Assembly: GCA_030754995.1 (NCBI GenBank)
Contig: JASLZG010000003.1
Span: 1-43,884, forward strand
From: Lentisphaeria bacterium
Lineage (GTDB): Bacteria; Verrucomicrobiota; Lentisphaeria; JABSQK01; CAJWLW01
Direction of reading: 5' to 3'
DNA length: 43,884 bases
A program made the translations under genes and the position numbers. The stretch's first letter is position 1. The number at the start of each line of letters is the position of its first letter. Of this stretch, positions 15,170 through 43,077 are shown in pieces. The notes below the pieces were generated by a model that made no database searches, was not told the origin of the DNA, and saw only the letters and a program-made list of their open reading frames with translations.

Positions 15170-15372
15170 CCGTACACCAGGTTTAGGTTCGGCACCGCCG
15201 CCCGTGGTCAAGGGCTCTTCTCCTTCCTGTTCGCAGCCTCAACACATTGACTGCAAAACGCTGTCCGTCAAACGCAGTTCTGATGTTTGTATTGGTTGTC
15301 GGCCGAGAGATATTCATTATCGGCTTTACCGGGTCAACCGCACACAACCAACATCACGCAGGGGTAAGCAAA

Positions 15373-16746
15373 ATGGCAGGGCCCAAGGTCGTCATTATCG
15401 GCGCCGGCAGCTTGTTTTTCGGCCGGCAGGCCATCTGGCAGATGGTCACCAGTGAACATTTGAATACCGGCACGCTGGCCCTGGTCGACACCGAACCGAC
15501 GCACCTGGCGCGCATGACGGAGCTGGCCCGCAAGGCCATCGACCATGCCGGCGTGTCGCTCAAGCTGGACTCATCCGGGGATCGTTGCGAACTCCTGGCC
15601 GGCGCTGATTTCGTGGTCCTCTCTTTCGCGTACAAATCCGTCAAGCATCGGGCGCTCGACTGTGAAATTGCGGCAAAATTCGGCATCCGCATGTGCAGTG
15701 GCGACACCATCGGGCCCGGCGGCATCATGCGCACACTGCGCGAGTTCCCGAATATCCTGGCATGCTGCAAGGACATCGAGGAGTTGTGCCCGGATGCCTG
15801 GGTGATCAACTACATCAACCCGGCAGCGACCCACGCCATCGGGCTGCAGCTGTACGCGCCGAACCTGAAGAGCTTCGCCATGTGCGACGGCCTGCACATG
15901 CCGCACGTCAAGCGGGCTTACGCCGGCCGCGCCGGCATCACCGAGTCGGAAACTGCCGAGCTGACGCCGGAACAGGATCGTGATTTCGATATGCGCATCA
16001 CCGGCCCGAATCATTTCACGTTCCTGCTCAAGGCGGAATACCAGGGCGAAGACCTGCAGCCCAGGATTGCCGAAAGCCTGCGCCAACAGGCGGCCACCGA
16101 AACGGACGGCGGCGACACCGGGGCCAAGGCCCTGAACAACGACGCCATCACCTACGAGCTCTACAAAGCGCTCGGCTATCTGCCGGCCTGCACAGGGCAC
16201 ACCAAGGAGTACGTCCGCTACTGGCAGGGCAACACGGTCGTCGACGACCCGATCCCGCCGATCGCGATCTGGGATCACGTCCCGCGATACGAATGGCATT
16301 GGGACATGTGGAACGAGGTCGACGGTTACAACTACGGCACACGCAGTCTCGACGAGTTCATCGCCAACACCAAGGCGGACCACGCCACCGACGTCATCGA
16401 AGCGATGTGGGGCGGGCTCGACAAACCGTTCCACCTCATCCTGCCGGTCGGCGACGCGGTGCCGAACATGAACGATGCCTGTATGGAGATTCTTTGTGAC
16501 CTGTCGATGGACAAGATCACGCCGCGCCATGTCGGCGACGCACCTGTCGGGCTGCGCGGCCTGTGGCGGCAGGTTCTCGACAGTCACGAACTCACCGCCC
16601 GCGCCGCCGCCGAGGTCGACCGCGACCTGCTCTACCGCGCCTTCGCCACCGACCCGCTCTGCCAGAGCCTGGCAGACAGCCAGGCGATGATCGAAGAACT
16701 GCTGGCCGCCGAGAAGGACGTCATCCCGGGTGGCTGGCATTCATGA
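15373..16746 (+). CDS. Glycoside hydrolase family 4-like (NAD/Mn-dependent glycosidase)
   Basis: From ATG 15373 the protein begins MAGPKVVIIGAGSLFFGRQ (Rossmann). CSGDTIGPGGIMRTLR and AWVINYINPA match GH4 signatures. The track start 15247 adds 42 unlikely residues. Confidence 0.8.
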   Translation: MAGPKVVIIGAGSLFFGRQAIWQMVTSEHLNTGTLALVDTEPTHLARMTELARKAIDHAGVSLKLDSSGDRCELLAGADFVVLSFAYKSVKHRALDCEIAAKFGIRMCSGDTIGPGGIMRTLREFPNILACCKDIEELCPDAWVINYINPAATHAIGLQLYAPNLKSFAMCDGLHMPHVKRAYAGRAGITESETAELTPEQDRDFDMRITGPNHFTFLLKAEYQGEDLQPRIAESLRQQAATETDGGDTGAKALNNDAITYELYKALGYLPACTGHTKEYVRYWQGNTVVDDPIPPIAIWDHVPRYEWHWDMWNEVDGYNYGTRSLDEFIANTKADHATDVIEAMWGGLDKPFHLILPVGDAVPNMNDACMEILCDLSMDKITPRHVGDAPVGLRGLWRQVLDSHELTARAAAEVDRDLLYRAFATDPLCQSLADSQAMIEELLAAEKDVIPGGWHS

Positions 16747-18887: not shown

Positions 18888-21632
18888 TCACCGGGTCGGC
18901 CGTATGCCGATCTGCGATGTGTCGATTGGTTCGAAACCGATATCAAAGGCGGGCGAGTCAGGCGCCAGCGTGTAGTCGTCGTTGTCCGGGTCGACGAATT
19001 TCGGATCGGCATAAACAGTGGCGGTGTCGAAGCCCAGCGAATGCCACCAGGCCATCGACGGGTCGTCGATTCGAGACCCCTCGCCCAACCGCTCGATCGC
19101 CTCCCCGGGCACCCCGCTAAAGGTTGTCGCGGCACCGCCCGGGGTCATGATCAGGTTGGCGTTCAGCTCGTCGAACACCGGCGCCAGGTCGAGCTTGCCG
19201 ATCGCGTTCAGCCGCATGTAATTGGCGTCCTCGGCGCTGTACGCGATGATATTGCGACAGAAACGCTGACCGCTCATTTCGCCGCCGAGCAGCAGGTAGA
19301 CCTGTGACTTCGAGGAGTCGACGAAGATGTTGTTCTCGACGACCGTGTTGCGGCAGTACCAACTGATCATCATGCCGCCGAGCGTGTTGCGGGCAACGAT
19401 GTTGCCGTACACCTGAATCTCCATCGGCGCGTTGTCGAAGTAGATGCCCCAACTGTAGTAGTGCGTCCACAACCGGCCGTCGCAATAGTCGATGCCGCCC
19501 GGTTCCGCCTTGATGCCGTAGGCGCCGCAACCGACGATGTCCATGACCCGGTTGTAGCGGATGATGGCGCCGGACGCCAACTGCGGGTCCAGCTCGGTGG
19601 TGTACCAGCGATTGGCCGTGATGCCGCCGGCATCGCACGTTTCCAGGCAGAGGTCGTGCAGCTCGTTGTACTCGATCACCAGCGGGCCCAGTCCACTCAT
19701 CAGGCCGATGCCGAAGCGCGGGCCGTGGTGGATGTGGTTGTGGCTGACCGTGACCTCCGCCGTGGCGACGCCGAAGAAGGCGATGCCGTTGGCATGTTTC
19801 TCGTAGACCCCGAAATGATGAATGTGATTGTCGCTGATCACGTGCCCGGTACTGCGCGGCCAGACCGCAACCGCCGGGGCCCGGTCCTCCGGCATCGTGT
19901 GCCACTCCGACGGTCCCGGCAGATCGCTGGAACAGACGTCGTGACGCGAGAAACCACTCTGCCTGTGGGCGATGAAGATGCCGTAGGCACCGGCGCCGTG
20001 GACGTGATTACGCGTCGCCGTCACACCGGTGTTCATGCCCGAAATTCGGATCGCATCACCGCCGACAGCGTCGAACTCGCAACCGGTGACGGCACAGTTG
20101 TCGGTGTACTCGAAGAGAAGCGCGACGCTGGCATTGGGCGTCTTGTAGTACGAGTCCGGTTTCGGCCAGCCGATCTGGTTTTGGGTGAACCGCAAATTCT
20201 CGAAGCGCACGAAACTGACCAACGCCCCGGTTTCCGGGCAGCCGCGCAGCTCGACCAGCCCCTCTGCCTGCGGCGCCGTCACGACTGCCTGCTCGATATC
20301 GATACCCGACGGCGGCCGGAAATACACTTTCCCCGCTTCCGCATCAAGGCACCATTCGCCGGCGTCCGTCAAATCTTCGAGATTGTTCTCGATACGAAAT
20401 CGATTGCCCGGCATAAGGTGCGTGGCACTGCCCAGTGTGTAGGCCGACATTCCCACCGGACGGCACAGATGGATCGTCCGGGTCGCCGCATCGACCGACC
20501 GCACCGGGATAATGTCGCTGACCCACGATTTGCCCGGCACCACAAAGACCTCTGCCTGGTGCGCCTTCGCGTATTCGGCCGGGAACGGATCGTCCTGCCA
20601 GGTGAAGGCGGCGGGATTACGGACGCTGCCGCGCACCGAGGCCAGGTCCGGTTCGCCGGCGGCGCTGACCAGTGAAACCGGATGACGCATTCCGCCGCCG
20701 CCGCTGTCGCAGTTGACCCTGACGGCAAACTCGTGAGCCTGTCCGGGCTTCAGGTGGCGGCGGATGTCGATCTTGAACGGGCGCTCCCAGAGCTCGTCGC
20801 CGGAGAGTCCGGTGGAAGCGTAGCTGTGTTCGAAAATCAACTCGCCGTCGAGGTAGACATAGGCCTCCTTGTCAACGGCGCCGAAGCACAGCCAGAGGTT
20901 CTGGCGCGAATCGAAATCCGCGGGCAGGGTCACCGTCGTGCGGTACCACGCCGTCCCGAGATATTCGTAGCCCTGCCGGACCCAATCCGTCTGCAGGCTG
21001 ATATCGGCCCACTCACCGGTGTCCGTCGCGGCACTGGCCCACTGCTGCCCCTCCCCGACACGGCCGGGGTCGGTGCGGAAACGCCAGGGGCCGAGCCGAC
21101 AGACGTCGACGCCGTCCATTGCGCCGCTGGAGTCGACCAGCTCATCGATGAATGCCCAGCCGTCGTACAGCGGATCCTCCGGGTTGTACTTCGGGCGACG
21201 GCTGCGCACCATGCGCCGGCCGTCGCAGAACAACTGCTTGAAACTCCAGATACCGCTGCGCACATCAGGGATATCGGCCACAAAAATACCGTCCGCGTGC
21301 GGCTGCCAGTTCGTGATGCGGCGGCCGGCGGTGATGGAAGCCTGCTCTCCCGGGTAGGAGCGATAGACAACCGGTGCGCCGCGGCGGCCCGAGTCACCGG
21401 CGGTCAAATGCAATGGCTCACTGAGGACATGGGCGCCCTGGCGCAGGTTGACCTCGGCGGCGCCGTTCACCTCGCCGTCGTACCGCAGTTTACGCAACCG
21501 GTTGCGGGCGCCGAACATTGTCGCCAGCGGCTCATCAATAGTGCCCGGCGCAGCATCGTCGCCTGCCGGAGCAACATAAAGTTTCGTTGCAGCTTCGGTC
21601 TGCATGTTGTTGACGTCCATCGATCGGTTCAA
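18888..21632 (-). CDS. Large right-handed parallel beta-helix protein with a GH2-like sugar-binding (galactose-binding-like) domain
   Basis: 914-aa ORF. KLYVAPAGDDAAPGTIDEPLATM is typical of N-termini in pectate-lyase-fold proteins. WYRTTVTLPADFDSRQNLWLCFGAVDKEAYVYLDGELIFEH resembles the GH2 N-terminal sugar-binding domain. Repeated NxxxxNN / HHFG-type turns occur, and the C-terminal YADPKFVDPDNDDYTLAPDSPAFDIGFEPID is typical of beta-helix proteins. The start is uncertain: TTG 21632, ATG 21620 or ATG 21605. Confidence 0.75.
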   Translation of the reverse strand: MNRSMDVNNMQTEAATKLYVAPAGDDAAPGTIDEPLATMFGARNRLRKLRYDGEVNGAAEVNLRQGAHVLSEPLHLTAGDSGRRGAPVVYRSYPGEQASITAGRRITNWQPHADGIFVADIPDVRSGIWSFKQLFCDGRRMVRSRRPKYNPEDPLYDGWAFIDELVDSSGAMDGVDVCRLGPWRFRTDPGRVGEGQQWASAATDTGEWADISLQTDWVRQGYEYLGTAWYRTTVTLPADFDSRQNLWLCFGAVDKEAYVYLDGELIFEHSYASTGLSGDELWERPFKIDIRRHLKPGQAHEFAVRVNCDSGGGGMRHPVSLVSAAGEPDLASVRGSVRNPAAFTWQDDPFPAEYAKAHQAEVFVVPGKSWVSDIIPVRSVDAATRTIHLCRPVGMSAYTLGSATHLMPGNRFRIENNLEDLTDAGEWCLDAEAGKVYFRPPSGIDIEQAVVTAPQAEGLVELRGCPETGALVSFVRFENLRFTQNQIGWPKPDSYYKTPNASVALLFEYTDNCAVTGCEFDAVGGDAIRISGMNTGVTATRNHVHGAGAYGIFIAHRQSGFSRHDVCSSDLPGPSEWHTMPEDRAPAVAVWPRSTGHVISDNHIHHFGVYEKHANGIAFFGVATAEVTVSHNHIHHGPRFGIGLMSGLGPLVIEYNELHDLCLETCDAGGITANRWYTTELDPQLASGAIIRYNRVMDIVGCGAYGIKAEPGGIDYCDGRLWTHYYSWGIYFDNAPMEIQVYGNIVARNTLGGMMISWYCRNTVVENNIFVDSSKSQVYLLLGGEMSGQRFCRNIIAYSAEDANYMRLNAIGKLDLAPVFDELNANLIMTPGGAATTFSGVPGEAIERLGEGSRIDDPSMAWWHSLGFDTATVYADPKFVDPDNDDYTLAPDSPAFDIGFEPIDTSQIGIRPTR

Positions 21633-21732: not shown

Positions 21733-22809
21733 ATGAAAATTGACCGTGTCTTCTTCCTGATTCACCCGGCTTGCTGGGCCTTGCACGACGGACATCCGGA
21801 CCTGGCAGAGCTGCAGCGGCAGGGTACACGACGCGCTTCGTTCTTCGCCGCCGATCACTGGGAACAACGGGTGATCGAGCTGCAGAAAAAGTTTATCGAA
21901 TCCCTCGGCCAGGGCGACGCGATGGTCATCTACCCGATCGGTGACACGCCGCCGATGTGCAGCCTCCTCGAAACCGCGCGCACGCACCTCGGTGACCGCT
22001 GCATCGTGCAACAGGCCTCGATCAACGTGGAGCCGGCGGCGCTGCACGACATGACCGAGCCGATCCGCCATTTCCTCGAGGACGAACTGCTCGAGGGCCG
22101 TGACGAGTTCTGGGACGTGATCCCCGAACATCTGCACGCGGAGATACATGATGACCTCCGCCGCGCCATCGCCGCGCACGGACATGACTGGGCACCACGT
22201 GCCTTGAAAGTGCTCTCCGGCAATCGCATCTATGCCGACGAGATCGCCCGTGAATTAACCCGGCTCGGTTGGGAGATCGACCCGAACACCGTCGAGTCCG
22301 TGGCATTCGGGGAAGGCTTCGAACAGTGCGCCATGGCGTGGAAGGCGATGGTCGGCGACTATCTCGGCTGGGCACGACCGATCGAGAACGATTTCCAGCT
22401 CTCAGTCAGTGGGGCACCATGCCTGTTCGATGCACAATTCCGGGAACGCCTCGATCTCGACCACGATATCCGCTTGTTCCTGTGGGAAAAACCGAACAAC
22501 CTGTGGCTCGGATTCTACGCCCGGTGCCGTGGCCGCCTGCACGAGCCGTATTATGTCGCGAACTTCGCACCCGGAGACACGGTGATAGAGGCAGTGGACA
22601 TTGCCGACAAGGTGCTGTGGCCGGCCGACGACTCAGTCGTCACGATGACCGACGATCGCCTGCGGGTGCCCGTACTCTCCGGACTGCGAATGCTGCCCGA
22701 CGAAGGACCGTGCTACCTGGTCGGATGTAACCACACATACGCGCAATTCCGCGACCTGCTTGCCGGCGCCCGCATCGAGCCCTTTAACCTCACCCCATCA
22801 AACTCATGA
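21733..22809 (+). CDS. Hypothetical cytoplasmic protein (358 aa), no recognised domain
   Basis: A clean ORF from ATG 21733. The stop TGA 22807-22809 overlaps ATG 22806 of the next gene (ATGA coupling). No TM segment, signal peptide or known motif was seen. Confidence 0.65.
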   Translation: MKIDRVFFLIHPACWALHDGHPDLAELQRQGTRRASFFAADHWEQRVIELQKKFIESLGQGDAMVIYPIGDTPPMCSLLETARTHLGDRCIVQQASINVEPAALHDMTEPIRHFLEDELLEGRDEFWDVIPEHLHAEIHDDLRRAIAAHGHDWAPRALKVLSGNRIYADEIARELTRLGWEIDPNTVESVAFGEGFEQCAMAWKAMVGDYLGWARPIENDFQLSVSGAPCLFDAQFRERLDLDHDIRLFLWEKPNNLWLGFYARCRGRLHEPYYVANFAPGDTVIEAVDIADKVLWPADDSVVTMTDDRLRVPVLSGLRMLPDEGPCYLVGCNHTYAQFRDLLAGARIEPFNLTPSNS

Positions 22810-24272
22810 AAGTATTTTCCGGCGGCATCGCCACGGAAACCAATATGTTTGCCCCGTCTCCCACCGGCATGGCCGACTACGATGTCATTCGCCCGGCCGA
22901 ACTGAAGACCGGCGGTACGGCAGCCGGTTTCGAGCAGACGATCAGAATCTGGAAGACGGAATCAGCTGAATGCGGGTGGGAATTCGCCTTCGGCCTGTTT
23001 GCCTTTGCGCAACCGGGAGGTGTTACGCCGCGGGCGGTGTACGAAAGCCTGCGAGACGAGCTGCTGGCGGCCCTCGAATCCGCGATGCCGGTCGACATCG
23101 TCCTGCTCTGTCTGCACGGCGCCATGGTCGCCGACGGCTACGACGACTGCGAAACCGATATCATCGCGCGGGTCCGCGAGATCGTCGGACCTGCCGCAAC
23201 GGTCGGGGTCGAGCTGGACCTGCACTGCGACGTCACGGCGCAGATGATCGGGCAGGCGGACGCGATTGTGCTGTTCAAGGAGTACCCGCACACGGACATT
23301 GGCGAGCGGGCACGCGATCTCTTTCGAATCATCGCAGACTGCGCAAAGGGCAAGGTTCGACCCGCCATGGCGCTGTTCGACTGCCGCATGATCGGCATGT
23401 ACCTGACGCCGTTCGAGCCGATGCGATCGTTCGTCGATGAGATGACCGCAATGGAAGGACAGAACGGTGTCCTGTCCCTGTCCGTCGTTCATTGCTTCCC
23501 GTGGGGCGACGTCCCGACGACGGGCACGCAGATCCTGGCGGTCACCGATGATGATCTCGAGCTGGCGAACCGGGTCGCCGAAGAACTGGGCCGCAAGTTT
23601 TTCGGCCTGCGCCATCAGTTGCAGGTTGACTCACCGGACATGCACACCGCCCTGGACAAGGCGCTGTCGAGCCCGGACAGCCCGGTGGTGGTCGCCGATC
23701 AGGCAGACAATGCCGGGGCCGGGGCGCCGAGCGATTCGACGTTCGTCCTGGGTGAACTGCTGCGCCGCGGGGCCGGCAACGCGGCACTGGGAATGATCTG
23801 GGATCCCATTGCCGTGCAGACGGCGATGGCGGCGGGGCAAGGAGCCACGTTGGACCTGCGCCTGGGCGGCAAGATGGGACCGATGTCGGGGGACCCGCTG
23901 GACCTGTCCGTGACGGTCACGGCGATCGTTCCGGACATGACCCAGGAGTGGCCCCAGGGCAGCGGGCCCCCGATGCAGTGTCCGGTGGGCAATGCCGTGG
24001 CCCTGCATTGCCGCGGCATCGACATCGTTGTCAACAGCAGGCGCAGCCAGGTCTTCAGCCCACAGGTGTTCAGCAAGTGCGGCATCGATCCGATGCAAAG
24101 GCAGTTGCTGGTCGTGAAATCGACCCAGCACTTTTATGCCGGCTTCGAGCCGATTGCGGCCCTGATCATCTACATGTCGGCGCCCGGCGCCGTGCCGCCG
24201 CACTTCATCAAGATCCCGTACACCAGGGTCGATACCCACAAGTTTCCGTGGGTCGACAATCCATTTGAGTGA
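22806..24272 (+). CDS. M81 family metallopeptidase (MlrC / microcystinase C-like)
   Basis: The N-terminal GGIATETNMFAP (ETNxF motif), LHGAMVADGYDDCE, KEYPHTD and ADQADNAGAGAPSDST correspond to MlrC-family signatures (DUF1485 plus the MlrC C-terminal domain). Confidence 0.8.
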   Translation: MKVFSGGIATETNMFAPSPTGMADYDVIRPAELKTGGTAAGFEQTIRIWKTESAECGWEFAFGLFAFAQPGGVTPRAVYESLRDELLAALESAMPVDIVLLCLHGAMVADGYDDCETDIIARVREIVGPAATVGVELDLHCDVTAQMIGQADAIVLFKEYPHTDIGERARDLFRIIADCAKGKVRPAMALFDCRMIGMYLTPFEPMRSFVDEMTAMEGQNGVLSLSVVHCFPWGDVPTTGTQILAVTDDDLELANRVAEELGRKFFGLRHQLQVDSPDMHTALDKALSSPDSPVVVADQADNAGAGAPSDSTFVLGELLRRGAGNAALGMIWDPIAVQTAMAAGQGATLDLRLGGKMGPMSGDPLDLSVTVTAIVPDMTQEWPQGSGPPMQCPVGNAVALHCRGIDIVVNSRRSQVFSPQVFSKCGIDPMQRQLLVVKSTQHFYAGFEPIAALIIYMSAPGAVPPHFIKIPYTRVDTHKFPWVDNPFE

Positions 24273-24796: not shown

Positions 24797-25999
24797 CTAC
24801 GGCACCCCCGCCAGAACCTCGATCTCGGTCAAGCAGGAAGGAAAGCCGTCACCGCAGATCCCCTGGCCGGCAGCAGCAGTGGTCAGTTGCGCCGTGATCT
24901 CGTCAACTACTTGATTGATATTGGTGTATGGCGCCCCGGCGCAGAGTCCGTCAAGCACGACGGTGTGCAGGTCAACGCAATCGATGCACGGCGGGCTGCC
25001 GCCGGAGACCTGGGCAACGCCGATCTTGTTGGTCAGGAAAAACAGCGGGATATTGGACAGCAACGAACCACCGCCAACCCCGAATATCTCGACGCCCTGC
25101 AAAGAACGGGCAGCGTACACCCGCGAGTTGTTGGAGGTGACGGCGATGCCGGCGCCAGGGGTCCCCTGGGCGGTGCTGCCGGTGAAACCGCCGACGATCG
25201 CGGCGGTCGCGGTGTCGATGATCTCGACCGGAATACCGTTGCTGTGGGAAACGTAAAGCGTCGTGCCCGCAGGGTTGAGTGCGATCCCGGTCGGGCCGGT
25301 GGCCACCGGGATCGTCGAGACGTCCGACGTGTTGACATCGATCACCACGACATCGCCGTTGTTTTGGTGGACCGTATAGAGCCTGCTGCCGTCCGGGGTG
25401 ATCTCGAGCGCCCCATTGCCGTCCTGCAACGTCGCCGGAATCGATCCGCTAACGGCGTTGGTGGCGGTGTCGATAACCGTGATCGCGTTCGTCGTGACCG
25501 CATGTGACACATAGAGTGTCAAGCCATCCGGTGAAATCGCGATACCGGTCGGATTAACCGGCACGGTGATTGACTCGGTGACCGTGTTCGTCGCGGTGTC
25601 GATCACATAAACGAGGTCTGACCCGTTGGCGTCGAACGTCGCGTACACCACGCTGCCGTCGGAGTTGAAGGCGAAATCCGAAACCGCCCCGTTTGACGAT
25701 GCGAATGAAGTGATGAGCGTATTCGTCGTGCCGTTGATTGCCGAAATGGCACCCGAGAGTTCCGGGCCGACATAGACCTTGGTGCCGTCAGGCGATACGC
25801 CGACGCCACGATTGCTGTTGGCCGCGAAAATAGTCGTCACCAGGGTGTCGGTGGCGGTGTCGATCACGTCCACTTGCGACGACGTCTGGTCTGTCACATA
25901 CGCGAAGGATGCCGCGAAGACGGGAATGACAACGGCAAAAAAAGCGCAGACCAATACATACACACCAAAGCTGCGTGCCACCGGGTGGGTTGGGGGCAT
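24797..25999 (-). CDS. YVTN-family beta-propeller repeat protein with N-terminal signal/anchor and Cys-rich C-terminal tail
   Basis: From ATG (complement of 25997-25999, with AAGGA upstream) the protein begins MPPTHPVARSFGVYVLVCAFFAVVIPVFAASFAYV. Repeats of the type YV(T/S)..........V.VIDTATN......I.V...P.GIA.SPDG..LYV occur about 7 times. Confidence 0.75.
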   Translation of the reverse strand: MPPTHPVARSFGVYVLVCAFFAVVIPVFAASFAYVTDQTSSQVDVIDTATDTLVTTIFAANSNRGVGVSPDGTKVYVGPELSGAISAINGTTNTLITSFASSNGAVSDFAFNSDGSVVYATFDANGSDLVYVIDTATNTVTESITVPVNPTGIAISPDGLTLYVSHAVTTNAITVIDTATNAVSGSIPATLQDGNGALEITPDGSRLYTVHQNNGDVVVIDVNTSDVSTIPVATGPTGIALNPAGTTLYVSHSNGIPVEIIDTATAAIVGGFTGSTAQGTPGAGIAVTSNNSRVYAARSLQGVEIFGVGGGSLLSNIPLFFLTNKIGVAQVSGGSPPCIDCVDLHTVVLDGLCAGAPYTNINQVVDEITAQLTTAAAGQGICGDGFPSCLTEIEVLAGVP

Positions 26000-26070
26000 G
26001 ATAAATCCTTGTAGACAGCTGGGTTGGGCTGGATAGCTGGATGGTAGACCACACAACTGCCCCGATTATC

Positions 26071-27678: not shown

Positions 27679-29877
27679 CTACTTTGAGAATTCTATGGTG
27701 AATTCCGGCACGGTGCCGTCTTCCACATCCATGCCGACCCCGAAGTTCCGGTGCCCGTAGTTCTCGCTGCCCACCGCCGGGTCCTGCCAGGTATGTTGGT
27801 CACGGCAGATTGACGACGGCGGCCGCTCGTCGCGGTCACGGGCATGGTCCAGGTATTGGTCGGCGCCGCCGATGTCCAGCAGCAGTCCGAACGAATTGGC
27901 GTGGAAGTCGTACGGACCGTAGCGGTATCCGCGTTTGCGGTACTCGTCACGGAACGGCGCGACGCCGCGGCCGCCGGCGCCGGCCGGGTACAGGTATGTG
28001 TCGTCGCCGCCGATATCGACGAGCAAGGCGTTCGAGCGGATATCGGCTCGCGCCATGCTGTTGCCCCACGCCGAGTAGACGTCGTTGCCACCCTTGTTGA
28101 GCAGCAGTGCGACGGTGAAATCCCAGCCGAACCCCAATCCCGCGCCGCCGGTCTCGAACAGCTCGTGGCGATCATTGCCGCCCTCGTCGATCAGCACGCC
28201 GATGCAGAAATGCGCCCCGCTGCCCTGCGTGAAGTACACACTCTTATAGTGATCGTCGCCCGCCCCGTCGAACAGCAGCCCCGTACCGTACCAGTATCCG
28301 AGTCCGACCGAGAAGTTCCCCGCCAGGTAGCTGTCGTCGCCGCTCAAGTCGATCATCGTGCCGAGGCCGCCGGCCCAGTTGTGGCCGTCGGCGCCGTCGC
28401 CGCGCCGGCCCGCGCCGACGCCCTGCGCCTGGCTGATGGCGATCTTGCCGCCGGAATGATAATCGGCGCGGCCGGCCTTTTCAGCGTAGACCTCGGCCTC
28501 GTACTGGTCGTTGCCCGAGTGGTTCGCCAACACACCGACGCCGCCCGGCCCGCCGTACCCCTGGCCGTCACCGAAGAAGTAGAAGCGATCATTGCCGCTG
28601 CCGTCCAGATGATAACCGAGGCCGAAATAGCCGGCGCCCTGCCCGGCCAGCGTCATCGTGTAGCTGTCGTCACCGTCGCGGTCGAACAACAGGCCGAGCC
28701 CGAAGAGGCCGGCACCCTGGGCATGGGAACCTGCCGTGTAGGTGTCGTTGCCGCCGTTGTCGATCAGGACACCGGCGCCGAGGATGCCGGCGCCCTGGGC
28801 CGGCACCTCCTCCGATACGTAGTCGTAGACATCGTTGCCGGCGCAGTCCAGCGCGATGCTGATCGGCAGCGACAGTGACGAGGTGGCGCCGACCGGACCG
28901 GTATAGCGATCGTCGCCGCCCAGGTCAACGAGCACGATGGCGTCGTCATGGGCATGCGTATCGGCGCCGGGTCCGGCCAGGACAACCCGGCCGATCGGCG
29001 TCACGAAGTCGAAGCTGGCCGCCGCCAGGTCAAGGTCGGTCTCCAGCACCGCGGCAAAGGCGTGGCGGGCGTCATCGGCCGCCTGCACCGCTTTCATGCC
29101 GGCGTAATACAGCGACGGCTCGTCGAGGTCCTTCGCCAGGTCGTCGATCGCGAAATGATAGACCCGGCTGCCCGAGTGGGTTTGGGGCAGGTCGCGGATG
29201 TGGAAGACTTCATTGAGATCCTGCGGATCGACATTGCGCATCGCCCGCTGCCGCCATTGCCAGGCGTCCAGCGCGTTGAGCACCAGCGCCGCCAGCGGTT
29301 GGCGGATCGCGGGGTCGAGTTTCGCGGCCTGGTCCCGCAGCTCCTGCCGCGCGTTCCTGTCCCAGCCGCGCCATTTCTCGCCGGGGCTCAGGCCGAAAGT
29401 CTTCACCGTCAGCTGGCCGCCGGTGACGGCATAGATCCGGTCAATGGCATCGACCAGCGGGGTCTCCTCATCGGGCTGCGGATCGAGGTTGGCACTGTAC
29501 GAGCGGAAGCCGGTGATCTTGCGATCGACGCCGAGGAAATAAACGAGCTGGTACAGGGCATTCGGCTTCTCCAGCCCCGCGGGACTCAGGTACGCATCGA
29601 CCGCCATGGCCATGAGGCTGGTGAACTCGTAGCTCGCCAGCGGCTCGGCGAAGAGATCGTTGAAGAACGGCAGAAGATACGGCATCTGGTCGGGGTTGGG
29701 ATACCGTGACCAGTAGCCCTTCGGCCGATAGCCCAGGTCGTCCCGTGAAAAGCCGACCAGCTCCAGCGCCGCTCCCAGGCGATCCTCCTCCCGCACCGGT
29801 TCCTTCGCCGGTGCCGCGGCGGTCGTGACCAGTGAAAACGACGTCAGCAGAGCAAGCAGACGAAACCTGTACCGCAT
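27679..29877 (-). CDS. Secreted repeat protein: unknown N-terminal domain plus 12 Gly-rich GxDxY repeats (predicted beta-solenoid), 732 aa
   Basis: From ATG (complement of 29875-29877) the protein begins MRYRFRLLALLTSFSLVTTAAAPA, a signal peptide. The longer track ORF would overlap the cupin gene. Repeats lie at residues 320-675 (nt 27850-28935). Confidence 0.75.
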   Translation of the reverse strand: MRYRFRLLALLTSFSLVTTAAAPAKEPVREEDRLGAALELVGFSRDDLGYRPKGYWSRYPNPDQMPYLLPFFNDLFAEPLASYEFTSLMAMAVDAYLSPAGLEKPNALYQLVYFLGVDRKITGFRSYSANLDPQPDEETPLVDAIDRIYAVTGGQLTVKTFGLSPGEKWRGWDRNARQELRDQAAKLDPAIRQPLAALVLNALDAWQWRQRAMRNVDPQDLNEVFHIRDLPQTHSGSRVYHFAIDDLAKDLDEPSLYYAGMKAVQAADDARHAFAAVLETDLDLAAASFDFVTPIGRVVLAGPGADTHAHDDAIVLVDLGGDDRYTGPVGATSSLSLPISIALDCAGNDVYDYVSEEVPAQGAGILGAGVLIDNGGNDTYTAGSHAQGAGLFGLGLLFDRDGDDSYTMTLAGQGAGYFGLGYHLDGSGNDRFYFFGDGQGYGGPGGVGVLANHSGNDQYEAEVYAEKAGRADYHSGGKIAISQAQGVGAGRRGDGADGHNWAGGLGTMIDLSGDDSYLAGNFSVGLGYWYGTGLLFDGAGDDHYKSVYFTQGSGAHFCIGVLIDEGGNDRHELFETGGAGLGFGWDFTVALLLNKGGNDVYSAWGNSMARADIRSNALLVDIGGDDTYLYPAGAGGRGVAPFRDEYRKRGYRYGPYDFHANSFGLLLDIGGADQYLDHARDRDERPPSSICRDQHTWQDPAVGSENYGHRNFGVGMDVEDGTVPEFTIEFSK

Positions 29878-29939
29878 GGCGAATTCCCCGCTTTGATTAT
29901 CGGCCTGATGGGGTTCTGCAAGGAAGGCCCGGCCGCCGC

Positions 29940-30302
29940 CTACAGCTGCAGCGGCTCCGGGGTTCTCAGGACGAACGTCTTCCTGATGTACTCCGGAACG
30001 TGCCATTTTGTCTTCGTGCCGATCCGCATGTGCCCGACGTCGCCGGCCCGCAAGGTGACGGTCTCGCCACCGGCTTCCTCGATCGTTGCCTCGCCTTCGA
30101 GGATCATGACAAACTCGTCCCAGGTATAGTCCCAGGTGAAGTCGCCCGCGGTGCAGTCCCAGACGCCCTGTGTCACCTTGAGATCCTCCGTCTGGGCCGA
30201 GATCCAGATCTTCGCAACCGGGTCGCCGGCGATGATCTGCTCGGGGGCAATCGGGAAATCGGTCAACTCGACGGACGCAGCTTGGTGAGTGATCATGGAC
30301 AT
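29940..30302 (-). CDS. Cupin_3 (DUF861-type) small cupin protein
   Basis: 120 aa with a strong AAAGGAGG 6 nt upstream. GVWDCTAGDFTWDYTWDEFVMILEGEATIE...GETVTLRAGDV matches the single-domain cupin_3 pattern. It ends 62 nt before the start of the repeat-protein gene on the same strand. Confidence 0.75.
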   Translation of the reverse strand: MSMITHQAASVELTDFPIAPEQIIAGDPVAKIWISAQTEDLKVTQGVWDCTAGDFTWDYTWDEFVMILEGEATIEEAGGETVTLRAGDVGHMRIGTKTKWHVPEYIRKTFVLRTPEPLQL

Positions 30303-30436
30303 GGTGGGCCTCCTTTGGTTTTGGACTCATAACATAGGCACGCTTGGGGCAGGGCGCCAGACGATTCCTCATCATCTCTCAATTAACCTGTCCCGCGCCG
30401 TCTGGGGCGCTATACTATCGGTGCATAGGAAACCTC

Positions 30437-31660: not shown

Positions 31661-34600
31661 ATGAAAGATGAAAGGCGCAATGAACTGACTCGATTATTGC
31701 TGCAGCATCTCCGGTCCGGGACGGTAAATCTCGCTGATGTGCGGCCCGTTCTCGAGGAACTGCTGCCTGGCGCGCCGCCGCCGCTGGCCGAGCTGCACGA
31801 GCTCCTGGACGACGACCCGTCACCGGCGATTCGTCAGTTGCGGCAGGCCATCTTCCAACAGATGCTGGCCGGCGCGCGGCAGTGCCATGAACGCACGGTC
31901 GCCGGCGACCCCGCCGATGCGACGCCGCAGCAACTGGGGCTGCCGGCCAATGTGCACCTCGGCTGGCGTAATGAAAAAGAAGTTCTGCCAGTCGTGCACG
32001 CCGTCACCAATTGCCTGCGTGACACGCTGTTCCTCGACAGCCGGGACGGGTTGCACGAACTCCAGATCAGGATAGACGGTTACTTTCAAGATTCGTTGCA
32101 ATCGTATTTCAGGTTGCCCTCGCGCTGGCATGGTTTCGAGCCCGCCGCCGTCGCCGGCGAATTTGAGCAGCCGGTCGCGGCCCTCGCGGCGCAACGTCGC
32201 CAGGCGGCGCTCACCAGGGTCACGCAGGCCGTCGACGCATTGCCGGCGCCAGTGCCCGTGGACGTTGACGAACAGTTGTTGATGACCGAGCTCAAGAGCC
32301 GATTCACGGCAGCCACGACGCGGGCGGAACAACGGGAGCTCCTGGACGTTGCCCTGTGCTGGCCGGGTGACATCGCGGCCGGTGTGATTCGCGACTTGTG
32401 CCTTGAGGAATGGGCCCAATGCCGCGCCGTGCTGATGCTGGCAATGCGCTTCGGCCGGGCGGAGATCGACCACTGGACGGCGGCCGTGCGGTGGCTGGAT
32501 GAGCAAATCGCGGTACGCAACAACCGGCTGCAGTCCCGGCGCTTGAAGTACGATGAGGCGGCGCCGTACCTGCTGTTCCTCTGGTCCATTGACGAGGACG
32601 ATCAGGAAAGTGAACTGTCACTGGCACTGCATGACGAGCTGAAGCAGCGAGCCGCAGCGTATGATGTCGGCAAGTTCGTCGCCGTGTGGCACGATTACAT
32701 GAGCCCGGCCGAACTCAATCTACTGACCGGCCGACGGCCCGGCGAGATGACAGCCGCAGTGGATGCCGGCCAGGCCGGCGTTGCCGACGTTGCCGACGAC
32801 AACGAACAGCGGCCGCCCGATGGTGCCGACGCACCGGCCTTTTGGGCGGAGCATATCCGGCCGCTGCTCCATGAAAACTGGTACATGGTCGTTGGCCTGG
32901 TGATGGTGATCTTCGGAGCATCGTTACTCGCCTACTTCACGTGGGACAAGCACTGGCTGATGCGCTACACGATCATGCCGGCACTGTTGGCCGGGTTGAC
33001 GATCGGCTTTGCCGAATCCGGCGGCTGGCTGCAACGACGATTCGCCGAGCTGCGCGGTACGGCGATCATGATTCGCGCTGCCGCGATCGGCTTATTGCCG
33101 GTCAACTTCATGGCGGTGGCGCTGCTGAGCAACGACAGCCAGGTCGCGACGCATGCAAGATGGGCGCTGCCGGTCATGATGCTGGTGTACATGACGGTGT
33201 TCGGCTGGGGACTGATCCGTTGGTGCAGGGCGGTGCATCAACCTTCAGCCGGGCGGCTGTACCCGGCGCTGCTGGCACTCAATGTGATTGTGCCGGCAGG
33301 CGCCTCAAGCCGTTTTTTCCACGTCGCCGAAGGCACCGTCGTCATTCTCCTGGGCGTGCTGCTATACCTCGGCTTCATCGTCCTGGCCGGGACGATCCGG
33401 TCATTCGCGCAAAAGCAACTGACCCGCGAGATGATCATTGGCCGGCTGATCCCCTGGTTTGTCGGTGGAGTCCTGGTGCTGACCTATGTCGAGGTGTTCG
33501 CCTGGGTGCATTGGGTCCTGCACCTGGTTCCACAGGCCAGCCACTATGCCGTGCTGGCGGTGCTCGCCGGTGGCCTGATCATGCTGGTCGAGCGCCAGTA
33601 TCACCGCAAGCTCAATAGCGATGTTCCGTACCTGCCGGAATCCTTCATCGGATATGCGGCGATCATTGTCGGTATCCTGATGGGCCTCGGCGATCAATAC
33701 GTCCGTATCGCCGTGCTGGTGCTGGCAGGGGCCCTGTGGTTGTACCAGGCGACCCTGCGCAAGGGCGAAGTTCATCACTGGGTGGGGCTGACAATCCTGG
33801 CGATGGGCTGGGCCGCGATCGGCACCCTGGACGCCTTCCCCCGCCGCATGGAACTGAACCTGCTGCCCGTCCTCGGCCTTTGCATCGCCCTGGGAATCGG
33901 GGCGGTTCGCGCGCTGGCAAGGCGTTTCGGCAATGACGAATTGAGCGCTGCAGCGACGGAATTCCAACCCGCAATCCTGTTCTTGACGGCGATTGTGAGC
34001 ATGCTGTCACAGTGGCATTATCGGTCGGCACCGTTGGCAACCGGGCTGACGCTGATCGTGATCGCCGCCTTTTTCGCCTGGCGCGCCTACCGGGCCCGGC
34101 GCTTGGGTTGGGTGCATTCGACCATGGCGCTCCTCGCGCTGGCGCTGCCGTACCTGGGTTGTGTCGACATGGCGGGGCGCAGTCTGCATGGGAACACGCT
34201 GGTGTTCGGGCTGGCCGTGCTCGGCTTCCTATGGCTCGCCATAGGGCATTGGGTACAGTCCGACTTGCTGCGCCGGGCCCGTTCCACGGTGCTGTTCGCG
34301 TACGGTGCAGTCGCGGTGGCGGCGATGGTGGTTCGCGTCGTGATGGAACGCGGCCGTTTCGGTGAGACCGACGCAGTGTGGCTGGCACTCGACCTGTGCG
34401 GGCCCGTCCTGATGACCGTCGTCCTGGCATTTGCCGCCTACCATTCCCGCTCGCTGATCCCCGGGTTCATGGCGGCAGTGATTCTGGCGGTGCTGTTTCC
34501 CGAGTTGAAGCAGGGGCTGGAGGAACGTTCGCCAATCTATGGATGGGGCTCCGGACTGGCCAGTGCGATCTCCGCACTGGCGCTGTGCCTGGTTGCTTTT

Positions 34601-41781: not shown

Positions 41782-43077
41782 TCAATCCAGATAACGCGGC
41801 TGTTGCGCAATGTATTCGTCCAGCTGCGCGATCAGCGGCGCCGCGGCAACCGGCGGAGACGCCGCCAGGTTGTCGACCTCGCCGGGGTCGCGGGCCAGGT
41901 CAAAGATCTCGAGACGCCGGCTGCTGCGACGCGCGTCGGTATGCAGAATCACTTTCCAGCGCGCCGTGCGGATCGCGAAAATCTGCCGGTCGTCACCGCT
42001 CAGCGCCTGCCAGCCCGCCGGTGTCGTCTCGCTGAAGGCAACCTCGCGAAACGCCGTGTCCCCGTCGATCAACGGCAGCAGTGACTGTCCTTCCATCCAG
42101 TCGCGCTGCGGCAGGTCGAGCATCTCGAACAGCGTCGGCATGATGTCGATCTGCGAGACCTGTGCATCGACAACCGTACCGGGCTTCAGCCGCGGCGGGT
42201 AACGAAGGATCAGCGGCACCCGAATCGACTCGTCGTAGAGCGTCCCCATCAGGTTGCAGGAGCAATGGCCGACGTGCCCGCGCTCCATGAGCTCCTCGCC
42301 GTGATCGGCGGTGAGAATGATCAACGTTTCGTCGAGAATGCCCAGCACCTCGAGCCGGCCCAGCCATTCGCCGACCAGGTCGTCGAAGACCCGCACCTCG
42401 CCATCGTACAGCGCCTCCAAAGCGCCCCGGTCCTGGGGCTCCAGGTCGACGGCAGCAGCCGTGCGGCGGTGCGCCTCGTCGGCGTCGTCGTCCGGCAGCG
42501 GATCCGCCTCGCCCGCCTCCAGTTTGCTGATCATGCCGGAGGGATGAACGATCAGGAAGTTTCGCACGATCTCCATCCGCGCCATCGTTTCCGGAGTCGG
42601 CGTTTCGTCAAGAAACTGTTCGAAATACTCGGCCGGCGGATTGTAGGGCAGATGGGTGGGATACGGTTCCGCATAGAAGAACCACTTGTCCTGCCGATGG
42701 CTGTCGAAGTAGGCAGTAATCCCGTCGCTCCGGGTGTCGCGCCTGAAACCCAGCGGCGCCCAGCGCATGACCAGCTCACCATCGACGCAGTAGCCGGCGC
42801 GCTCGAGCGAATGCAGCGGCGTCTCGACGCCGTCCCAGGCACCGCCGATCCACTGTATGAAGCGCGGCGCATCGACGACCCCGTGGGTCGCCGGCCACTG
42901 GCTCATCAGCATTGAGACGATCGGCGGCAGCGTGTGGGCAGCGGTGGCAATGGCACCGTCGAAACGCACCCCTTCGCGAGCCAGTCGATCACAGTTCGGC
43001 GTCGTGTCGCGTTTGTAGCCGTAGCATCCCATGTGATCGGGACGCAGCGCATCTTCAAGGATCCACAGAACGTTCAT
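41782..43077 (-). CDS. Sulfatase-fold (alkaline phosphatase superfamily) hydrolase lacking the C/S-x-P-x-R motif; no signal peptide
   Basis: MNVLWILEDALRPDHMGCYGY, LTADHGEELMERGHVGH, DESIRVPLILRYP and SQIDIMPTLFEML follow the sulfatase-family layout. The nucleophile position reads AAH-T-L-P-P-I (nt 42919-42936) instead of C/S-x-P-x-R. Confidence 0.8.
   Translation of the reverse strand: MNVLWILEDALRPDHMGCYGYKRDTTPNCDRLAREGVRFDGAIATAAHTLPPIVSMLMSQWPATHGVVDAPRFIQWIGGAWDGVETPLHSLERAGYCVDGELVMRWAPLGFRRDTRSDGITAYFDSHRQDKWFFYAEPYPTHLPYNPPAEYFEQFLDETPTPETMARMEIVRNFLIVHPSGMISKLEAGEADPLPDDDADEAHRRTAAAVDLEPQDRGALEALYDGEVRVFDDLVGEWLGRLEVLGILDETLIILTADHGEELMERGHVGHCSCNLMGTLYDESIRVPLILRYPPRLKPGTVVDAQVSQIDIMPTLFEMLDLPQRDWMEGQSLLPLIDGDTAFREVAFSETTPAGWQALSGDDRQIFAIRTARWKVILHTDARRSSRRLEIFDLARDPGEVDNLAASPPVAAAPLIAQLDEYIAQQPRYLD

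Follow-up and report, generated by a model that had tools for sequence, protein, structure and literature searches.

The question raised by this locus is what kind of protein is encoded at positions 27679-29877 (minus strand) of a 43,884-nucleotide stretch of Lentisphaeria bacterium DNA (contig JASLZG010000003.1 of assembly GCA_030754995.1, positions 1 to 43,884 of the forward strand; this whole stretch is referred to here as the window), and where on that protein a working surface might lie. A sequence-only reading of the locus, made before any database search, had described a secreted protein with 12 copies of a Gly-rich GxDxY repeat, thought to form a metal-binding beta-solenoid, and had proposed that its gene may form an operon with an upstream cupin gene. 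The gene encodes 732 amino acids and a stop codon. Its open frame extends upstream to 30375, and 29877 is regarded as the right start because the orthologues begin at the same Met and a signal peptide follows directly after it. The structural part of the answer is well supported: the product is an exported, acidic, three-faced beta-solenoid with a private helical domain, and it belongs to a large unannotated family.

The repeat is real and far beyond chance. All 12 GxDxY motifs listed in the sequence-only reading are present; the first ten positions given for them were right and the last two (622 and 669) were off by one, the motifs starting at residues 320, 346, 375, 401, 427, 454, 512, 539, 566, 596, 623, and 670. 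Two degenerate extra copies lie at residues 303 (PGADTH) and 494 (DGADGH). The protein contains 14 matches to the relaxed pattern xG[DNA]Dx[YFH], against a mean of 0.29 and a maximum of 3 in 2000 shuffles of its sequence. A hidden Markov model (HMM) trained on five coils picked out 13 stretches of the protein, nine of them at 5 bits or more (five of these nine being the training coils), against a mean of 0.01 and a maximum of 1 in 200 shuffles of the repeat region. Glycine accounts for 20% of residues 301-690, the motif recurs with a period of 26-30 residues, and the coils, of 26-27 amino acids, follow the signature h-G-h-L-h-D-x-x-G-[DN]-D-x-Y-x6-Q-G-x-G-x-x-G. In the AlphaFold2 (AF2) model a regular coil has two strands of 6 residues separated by a 5-residue turn, followed by a Gly-rich side that carries a strand of 2 residues; as a purely descriptive observation, 27 residues equal three nonapeptide lengths. 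The coils number about 14, comprising the 12 with a motif, a starter coil at the N-terminus, and one irregular coil (residues 479-504), and residues 460-504 form an irregular insertion (RADYHS ... RRGDGADGHNWAGG) inside coils 7-11. Among 71 aligned orthologous sequences, every one of the 12 coils keeps the turn Gly and the Asp that follows it either unchanged or at 90% conservation or more, and nine coils keep the Asp closing the first strand at 90% or more; at least 22 Asp positions at equivalent turn sites are kept across phyla.

The solenoid proposed earlier is supported by structure prediction. An AF2 model of the full protein, built from the 71-sequence alignment, reached a predicted local distance difference test (pLDDT) score of 92.7 and a predicted template modelling (pTM) score of 0.92, and it contains a regular beta-solenoid predicted with high confidence. 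Reading from the N-terminus, and always on the minus strand, the model comprises the signal peptide of residues 1-24 (MRYRFRLLALLTSFSLVTTAAAPA; 29806-29877), with a basic n-region, a hydrophobic core, and a small-residue c-region; a family-specific alpha-helical domain of residues 25-292 (29002-29805), with 13 helices between residues 33 and 278 and a near-invariant loop GYRPKGYWxRFP; the beta-solenoid of residues 293-720 (27718-29001), with strands from 288 to 718, delimited by DSSP, pLDDT, coil register, the coil HMM, and structural alignment with VIA; and a short C-terminal tail of residues 721-732 with the stop codon (27679-27717), where pLDDT drops to 41 at the end of the model. Comparison of the whole model with 48,161 chains by VIA placed chain 3p4g_A, the Ca2+-bound region IV of MpAFP, at the top (Z 16.2, root-mean-square deviation (rmsd) 2.6 Å, 248 of the 301 chain residues aligned, 19% identity), leading the second match, TibA (Z 12.8, rmsd 5.4 Å), by 3.4 Z units. 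Below TibA come generic beta-helices at Z 8-12, such as tailspikes, autotransporter passengers, PL6 lyases, AlgE4, and polygalacturonase. Left-handed helices (LpxD, GlmU) superposed only at an rmsd of 11-12 Å and, since good superposition was found only on right-handed helices, the solenoid is probably a right-handed, three-faced parallel beta-helix. A Foldseek search of the whole model against the PDB gave no match at E<=1e-3.

Over the helical domain the full model has a pLDDT of 87-99 in most 10-residue blocks, with dips to 63-76 near residues 21-30, 51-60, and 231-240. Modelled alone from its own 69-row alignment, the domain reached a pLDDT of 80.5, which is below its confidence in the full model; this difference, together with the full-model pTM, suggests that the domain packs against the solenoid. 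The best VIA score of the isolated domain, to helical bundles and designed proteins, was Z 5.8, treated as no match. No chain reached Z>=8, and Foldseek gave no match at E<=1e-3.

Scans of the protein against Pfam, NCBIfam, and PHROGs returned no family at E<=0.1. The N-terminal part, which the sequence-only reading could not assign, thus has no Pfam or NCBIfam family either, and the repeat region matches no repeat family described in Pfam. The same reading had stated that the repeat was neither RTX nor PbH1, in agreement with the lack of a PF00353 match (hmmscan, Pfam-A) or a PF13229 match at that threshold, and had contrasted it with a 914-aa protein of the window (18888-21632), which does match PF13229 Beta_helix at 1.2e-17; the NosD profile (PF05048) also gave no match to the solenoid protein at E<=0.1. 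Searching the PDB sequences with the protein, and again with its 71-row profile, yielded chance-level rows only (E 0.12 and 0.48). The family itself is large: 2777 proteins match at E<=1e-3 among 8000 candidates scored and, against 1.84 billion representatives of clusters at 50% identity, 3429 clusters match at E<=1e-3 and 1509 at E<=1e-30. The 120 best matches are 44-95% identical, in most cases across 95-99% of the query, with lengths mainly between 705 and 770 aa; identity between phyla is 44-50% over 95-99% of the length. The only name found among these 120 is "hypothetical protein", ten diverse members carry that name or none at their source, and the ESM Atlas holds only "hypothetical protein" clusters, with no usable match to the helical domain among its named clusters. 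Many weaker matches start near query residue 175-290 and therefore cover the solenoid and the last helices without the first half of the helical domain, while outside solenoid proteins the helical domain was found in only eight short proteins, probably fragments. A Pfam scan of 14 chosen members showed that a few distant ones are fused to HEAT repeats, a Cu_amine_oxidN1 domain, or, in one member, a type IX secretion system (T9SS) sorting tail.

A literature search found no description of the repeat or of the family. Two candidates for a prior description, BapP (PMC12153261) and AbpX (bioRxiv preprint 10.64898/2026.01.04.697558), were rejected as unrelated proteins, judging from the accessible portions of those two sources. 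The fold class and the principle of one cation per coil are already known; a coil of 26-27 residues bearing a DxxG[DN]DxY turn, export by Sec, the accompanying helical domain, and the conserved polar ladder described below were not found in the libraries and literature searched. The same genome also encodes a paralogue of 887 aa (genome G000, contig C455, L002:1276-3939, minus strand, equal to L104:8959-11622, minus strand), whose solenoid shares 35% identity across 337 residues, is likewise built of GxDxY coils, and keeps the A-H (556) and W-D (585-586) pairs. It differs in its longer N-terminal part, with a weak PDZ_6 match (E 0.009) and a lipoprotein-like N-terminus bearing a lipobox-like VFAGC, and in the RADYHS / RRGDGxDGHxW stretch, for most of which the pairwise alignment shows no counterpart. 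The paralogue's neighbours are unrelated and gave no functional hint.

The signal peptide claimed earlier is of the Sec type, and an equivalent hydrophobic N-terminal segment was found in 73 of 75 family members by a heuristic that looks, in the 45 residues preceding the conserved core, for a 10-residue window above a crude hydropathy cut-off. Most show the N-terminal pattern K/R - hydrophobic - AxA/AQx, only three have a lipobox-like match, and the C-terminus of the protein is a conserved solenoid cap. The mature protein has an isoelectric point (pI) of 4.5, with 102 Asp+Glu against 54 Lys+Arg, and the family has a median pI of 4.5 and a median net charge of -43.

Conservation directs attention to one part of the solenoid. 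In coils 7-11 (residues 447-615; 28033-28539, minus strand), proposed as the functional face from conservation and coil register, conserved polar and aromatic residues take the place of the Gly-rich third face, and the invariant non-repeat residues among the 71 orthologues concentrate there (E462, R470, D472, H474, R492, D494, H499, W501, Y528, S546, F549, H556, W585, D586, and S615). In a more distant set of 76 members (E about 1e-57 to 1e-86), aligned with the query to give 77 rows, several positions are still kept: Q485 (99%), R492 (99%), D494 (86%), Y528 (94%), W529 (91%), Q551 (86%), H556 (100%), and D586 (95%). The pairs Y528-W529, A555-H556, and W585-D586 occupy the same register, namely the short third strand and the residue next to it, in three successive coils, and for this reason they should stack as a ladder, with R492 one coil above. 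The Arg/Tyr-Trp/His/Asp ladder on coils 7b-10 suggests a ligand-binding or catalytic face, the proximity of its residues being deduced from coil register.

Taken together, the reading that we favour places on coils 7b-10 a groove, either ligand-binding or catalytic, whose target would be a polymer outside the cytoplasm. The protein would be a very acidic, Sec-exported one that works outside the cytoplasm, in the periplasm or beyond, with the helical domain, found only with this solenoid, sitting on its N-terminal end. The D-x-x-G-[DN]-D-x-Y turns would bind Ca2+ between successive coils, in the manner of the RTX-like turns of MpAFP region IV, at one Ca2+ per coil turn, so that the protein could become rigid only after export. 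Its working surface would be the third face of coils 7b-10, where the residue ladder that replaces the Gly-rich QGxGxxG may hold a polymeric ligand; this ladder would consist of R492, Y528/W529, H556, and D586 in the wider family, with E462, R470, D472, H474, H499, W501, and S615 as extras kept among the orthologues. The ligand is most likely an anionic glycan or envelope component, which the protein possibly also cleaves, and no functional tie to the neighbouring cupin is expected. To this explanation as a whole a probability of roughly 0.55 is assigned. Its firm elements are the repeat, the fold, the size of the family, and the lack of a conserved partner gene; export, Ca2+ binding, the functional face, and the class of ligand are deduced.

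Several points weigh against it. Beta-helices of many unrelated functions reach Z 8-13, for which reason the fold alone is uninformative on function, and the best beta-helix row in Foldseek is 3p4g at only E 0.46. The Ca2+ sites and the spatial clustering of the conserved residues are deduced from motif and register logic, the protein has no RTX profile match, and its coil has 26-27 aa against 18-19 aa in every Ca2+-bound helix matched. A Sec signal alone does not separate residence in the periplasm from release outside the cell. Gene context, both in 80 loci carrying a family member and around the paralogue, offers no hint of a substrate, and the single RNA-library contig that maps to the region lies on the cupin, with none on the solenoid gene.

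One alternative sharpens the favoured reading rather than opposing it: the protein could represent a new family of carbohydrate-active lyases or hydrolases on a beta-helix, with the Arg, His, Tyr, and Asp of coils 7b-10 as catalytic residues and Ca2+ neutralising an acidic sugar, as in pectate and alginate lyases. Some pectate-lyase-like enzymes use Ca2+ and Arg for catalysis. In its favour, polar residues are invariant in orthologues, and R492, Y528/W529, H556, and D586 persist in distant subfamilies; beta-helix lyases, epimerases, and glycosidases are among the structural matches (6kfn Z 10.2, 7o7a Z 9.4, 2pyg Z 9.2, 1bhe Z 8.9), and other genes of the window specify a sulfatase, a GH4 enzyme, and a GH141-like beta-helix protein. 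The protein resembles the pectate-lyase-like/PbH1 helices (PF13229, PL6 alginate lyases, polygalacturonases) in its three-faced parallel beta-helix and similar coil length. Lyases, epimerases, and glycosidases of this type score Z 8-10 at an rmsd of 3.8-5.5 Å, against 2.6 Å for MpAFP and in the same range as unrelated beta-helices, and the protein lacks the PF13229 or NosD match of the PbH1 family, whereas the 914-aa protein of the window does match PF13229. Against an enzyme, no CAZy-related Pfam model matched, enzymes score no higher than adhesins and tailspikes in the structural comparison, and the gene adjoins housekeeping genes, usually in one to three copies, rather than polysaccharide-utilisation clusters. 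An enzyme is on the present evidence rather unlikely.

A second alternative is a non-catalytic structural or adhesive envelope protein, that is, a rigid, Ca2+-stiffened rod that binds a surface or matrix component. The top structural matches are indeed adhesin or passenger domains (MpAFP region IV Z 16.2, TibA Z 12.8, Vag8 Z 11.8, SRRP Z 11.1, HMW1 Z 10.8), the fusions of distant members to HEAT repeats, Cu_amine_oxidN1, or a T9SS tail would suit such a role, and the family is near-universal in one phylum. However, a whole-length identity of 44-50% across phyla, together with His, Arg, and Asp residues that are invariant, is tighter than is usual for adhesins. Neither an anchor nor an autotransporter barrel nor a type I secretion system (T1SS) signal was found, and the repeats have not expanded, the length staying at about 720 aa. 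A non-catalytic binder or structural protein is, on balance, unlikely.

In the portion of the source available, region IV of MpAFP is reported as thirteen 19-aa RTX-like repeats that form a Ca2+-bound right-handed beta-helix for which Ca2+ is needed, with a flat Thr/Asx array on one face that binds ice (PMC3492233). This region of the Marinomonas primoryensis protein (also MpIBP; PDB 3p4g) is the closest solved structure, and both proteins are acidic single-chain parallel beta-helices with a Gly-x-Asp type turn in every coil. They differ in coil length, 19 aa there against 26-27 aa and three strands here; in export, MpAFP being a giant T1SS adhesin and the present protein having an N-terminal Sec signal; and in the helical domain and conserved polar face found here. 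There is no sequence-level match between the two, and Ca2+ binding in the present protein would follow by analogy. Ice binding was rejected as a function, the coil listing showing no repeated T-x-N (Thr/Asx) array. The repeat also resembles RTX (PF00353) in its Gly/Asp-rich tandem units in parallel beta structure and in the likeness of the G-[DN]-D-x-[aromatic] turn to GGxGxDxUx, and differs in its period of 26-27 instead of 9 or 18 and in its single Asp turn per coil. RTX proteins carry a C-terminal T1SS signal, according to the parts of two reports that were at hand (PMC3492233; PMC6891781). Type I secretion would go with an uncleaved signal at that end and with no signal peptide at the N-terminus; a T1SS RTX protein was rejected here, the signal being of the N-terminal Sec type.

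Metal binding, the second half of the sequence-only proposal, is thus a reasonable but unproven suggestion, based on the Ca2+-bound best match, the conserved turn Asp, and the acidity of the family, and stiffening of the solenoid by Ca2+ is on balance likely. The competing explanation is that the Asp pairs only cap the turns of a metal-free solenoid, whose likeness to Ca2+-bound helices would be geometric. It draws on the missing RTX profile match, the coil of 26-27 and not 18-19 aa, the AF2 fold being confident without ions, and the poor Foldseek value for 3p4g already given. Against it stand the Asp positions kept at turn sites across phyla, the strongly negative median charge of the family, and the clear margin by which the closest structure is a Ca2+-bound one, and we consider it improbable.

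In its most ambitious form, the proposal would make this protein the first known member of a new class of beta-helix enzymes, three-faced and dependent on Ca2+, with one DxxG[DN]DxY cation turn per 27-residue coil (three nonapeptide-length sides), a previously unseen helical domain, and an Arg/Tyr-Trp/His/Asp ladder acting on an envelope or matrix polymer, near-universal in Zixibacteria-type bacteria and spread to some Lentisphaeria, Latescibacterota, Planctomycetota, and Armatimonadota; we hold this to be doubtful. The case matters because a family of at least 3429 clusters, with a relative in 118 of 121 genomes of one candidate phylum, has no Pfam or NCBIfam model, no name in the sources consulted, and no solved relative. 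The confident model offers a clear domain plan, a construct boundary of 25-732, and a set of residues for study, namely the turn Asp pairs and R492, Y528/W529, H556, and D586. If Ca2+ binding is true, the one-cation-per-coil principle of RTX and MpAFP would extend to a 27-residue, Sec-exported scaffold, and if a substrate is found, a core extracytoplasmic function would be named for largely uncultured sediment and seawater bacteria.

The gene immediately upstream encodes a cupin_3 protein of 120 aa (29940-30302, minus strand; PF05899, E 3e-21). As the sequence-only reading stated, it ends 62 nt before the start codon of the solenoid gene, lies on the same strand, and has a ribosome-binding site; the sequence of this site is AAGGAGG. 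The 62-nt gap (29878-29939, minus strand) contains a GGGGA-type ribosome-binding site 7-8 nt upstream of the ATG and no terminator-like or promoter-like site. The pairing did not extend beyond the genus. At the level of the family the adjacency is thus not conserved, an outcome that the sequence-only reading had itself listed as speaking against its proposal. The window's neighbours were searched by tblastn in the 80 loci: the cupin had a match in three, all same-genus copies, the Ldh_2 gene in three, the 2373-aa membrane protein in two, the beta-propeller in one, and the aldehyde dehydrogenase in four, of which two were same-genus copies. Apart from the other two aldehyde dehydrogenase matches, these neighbours are not kept outside the genus. 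The cupin occurs in 5 of 41 related genomes, all in the window's own family, and a metagenome scan added only three 95% copies and one 43% relative, the cupin gaining no more than the three 95% copies. De novo clustering of flanking open reading frames (ORFs) revealed neither a family-wide partner nor a cupin cluster. In a metatranscriptome, one RNA-library contig of 236 nt maps to 30070-30305 as an exact cupin match, with the solenoid gene outside it and DNA carry-over possible; a second RNA run had no contig on the region, although contigs cannot show absence.

A functional two-gene operon of cupin and solenoid protein is thus very improbable: the shared strand, the short gap with no terminator-like site, and retention of the pair in all three other genomes of the genus stand against the absence of the cupin from 77 of the 80 loci, the non-independence of the three loci that keep it (because they are about 95% identical), the lack of a cupin cluster, an RNA contig on the cupin alone, and the position of the cupin back-to-back with an Ldh_2 dehydrogenase gene, which, with the aldehyde dehydrogenase gene just downstream of the solenoid gene, suggests a metabolic role for it. 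The two genes may still be co-transcribed in this organism. For annotation, the cupin neighbour is no guide to the function of the solenoid protein.

The commonest neighbours across the 80 loci encode a 207-aa protein with no assigned role (28 loci), an HD-domain protein (27), RidA (20), and a PD40 propeller (12); further ones include Mfd, ribonucleotide reductase, a Nuo subunit, and a Na/H exchanger. The common neighbours are confined to subsets of the Zixibacteria- and Ignavibacteria-labelled loci and look like lineage synteny. The PD40 (TolB-like) propeller gene, for instance at L040:2671-3774 (minus strand), is divergent and just upstream of the solenoid gene in 11 of its 12 loci, at a median distance of 84 nt, and showed no homology to the propeller of the window by tblastn.

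The full-length gene is present in all four genomes of the window's genus; a search of the remaining 37 related genomes (41 in all, the window's own counted) did not find it, and five of these 37 have solenoid-type paralogues only (E 1e-14 to 1e-51). Among species genomes, 312 of 335 candidate stretches were confirmed to encode a relative, and the best 80 of these 312 are labelled Zixibacteria, Ignavibacteria, Latescibacterota, Planctomycetota, Armatimonadota, Victivallales, Calditrichota, and others. A sample of 121 genomes was drawn from the phylum to which one complete Zixibacteria-labelled chromosome belongs, the phylum label being that of the record title; 118 have a relative and three have no match. 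Of the 118, 63 match at E<=1e-200 (full-length type) and 55 only in the range 1e-48 to 1e-126; copies of the gene usually number one to three. A quick, unrooted maximum-likelihood tree of 76 rows placed the Lentisphaeria clade beside a Latescibacterota sequence (SH-aLRT 99), and a Victivallales sequence apart from it, with Planctomycetota and Armatimonadota. Gene transfer fits this patchy distribution, though labels taken from metagenome-assembled genomes (MAGs) and a tree of this kind are no proof of it. In the same tree, Ignavibacteria- and Zixibacteria-labelled sequences are thoroughly mixed (loci L013-L092). One "Ignavibacteriales"-labelled genome, L042 (G042), was among those sampled as members of the phylum of a Zixibacteria-labelled genome; the submitters' MAG labels are therefore probably inconsistent. 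Metagenome runs of seawater, marine, and hydrothermal-vent origin contain near-identical DNA; they come from 14 studies, the possible source study not counted.

Other genes and ORFs of the window were also recorded. Long hydrophobic stretches run all along the 2373-aa ORF (31661-38782, plus strand), which appears to encode a polytopic membrane protein of very large size; no Pfam family matched it at E<=0.001, and two same-genus loci carry it at 86-87% identity. The 419-aa propeller-like protein (24797-26056, minus strand) has a hydrophobic N-terminal segment, weak beta-propeller matches (lactonase/SGL/YVTN-like), and a Cys-rich C-terminal tail, and is kept in one same-genus locus only. Two further ORFs, of 358 aa (21733-22809, plus strand) and 313 aa (40806-41747, minus strand), have no Pfam family at E<=0.001. 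The window also holds the 914-aa Beta_helix/GH141-like protein (18888-21632, minus strand), the GH4 glycosidase (15247-16746, plus strand), the sulfatase (41782-43077, minus strand), and an M81/MlrC-type peptidase (22806-24272, plus strand), a set that fits a polymer-degrading lifestyle for a marine member of the Lentisphaeria.

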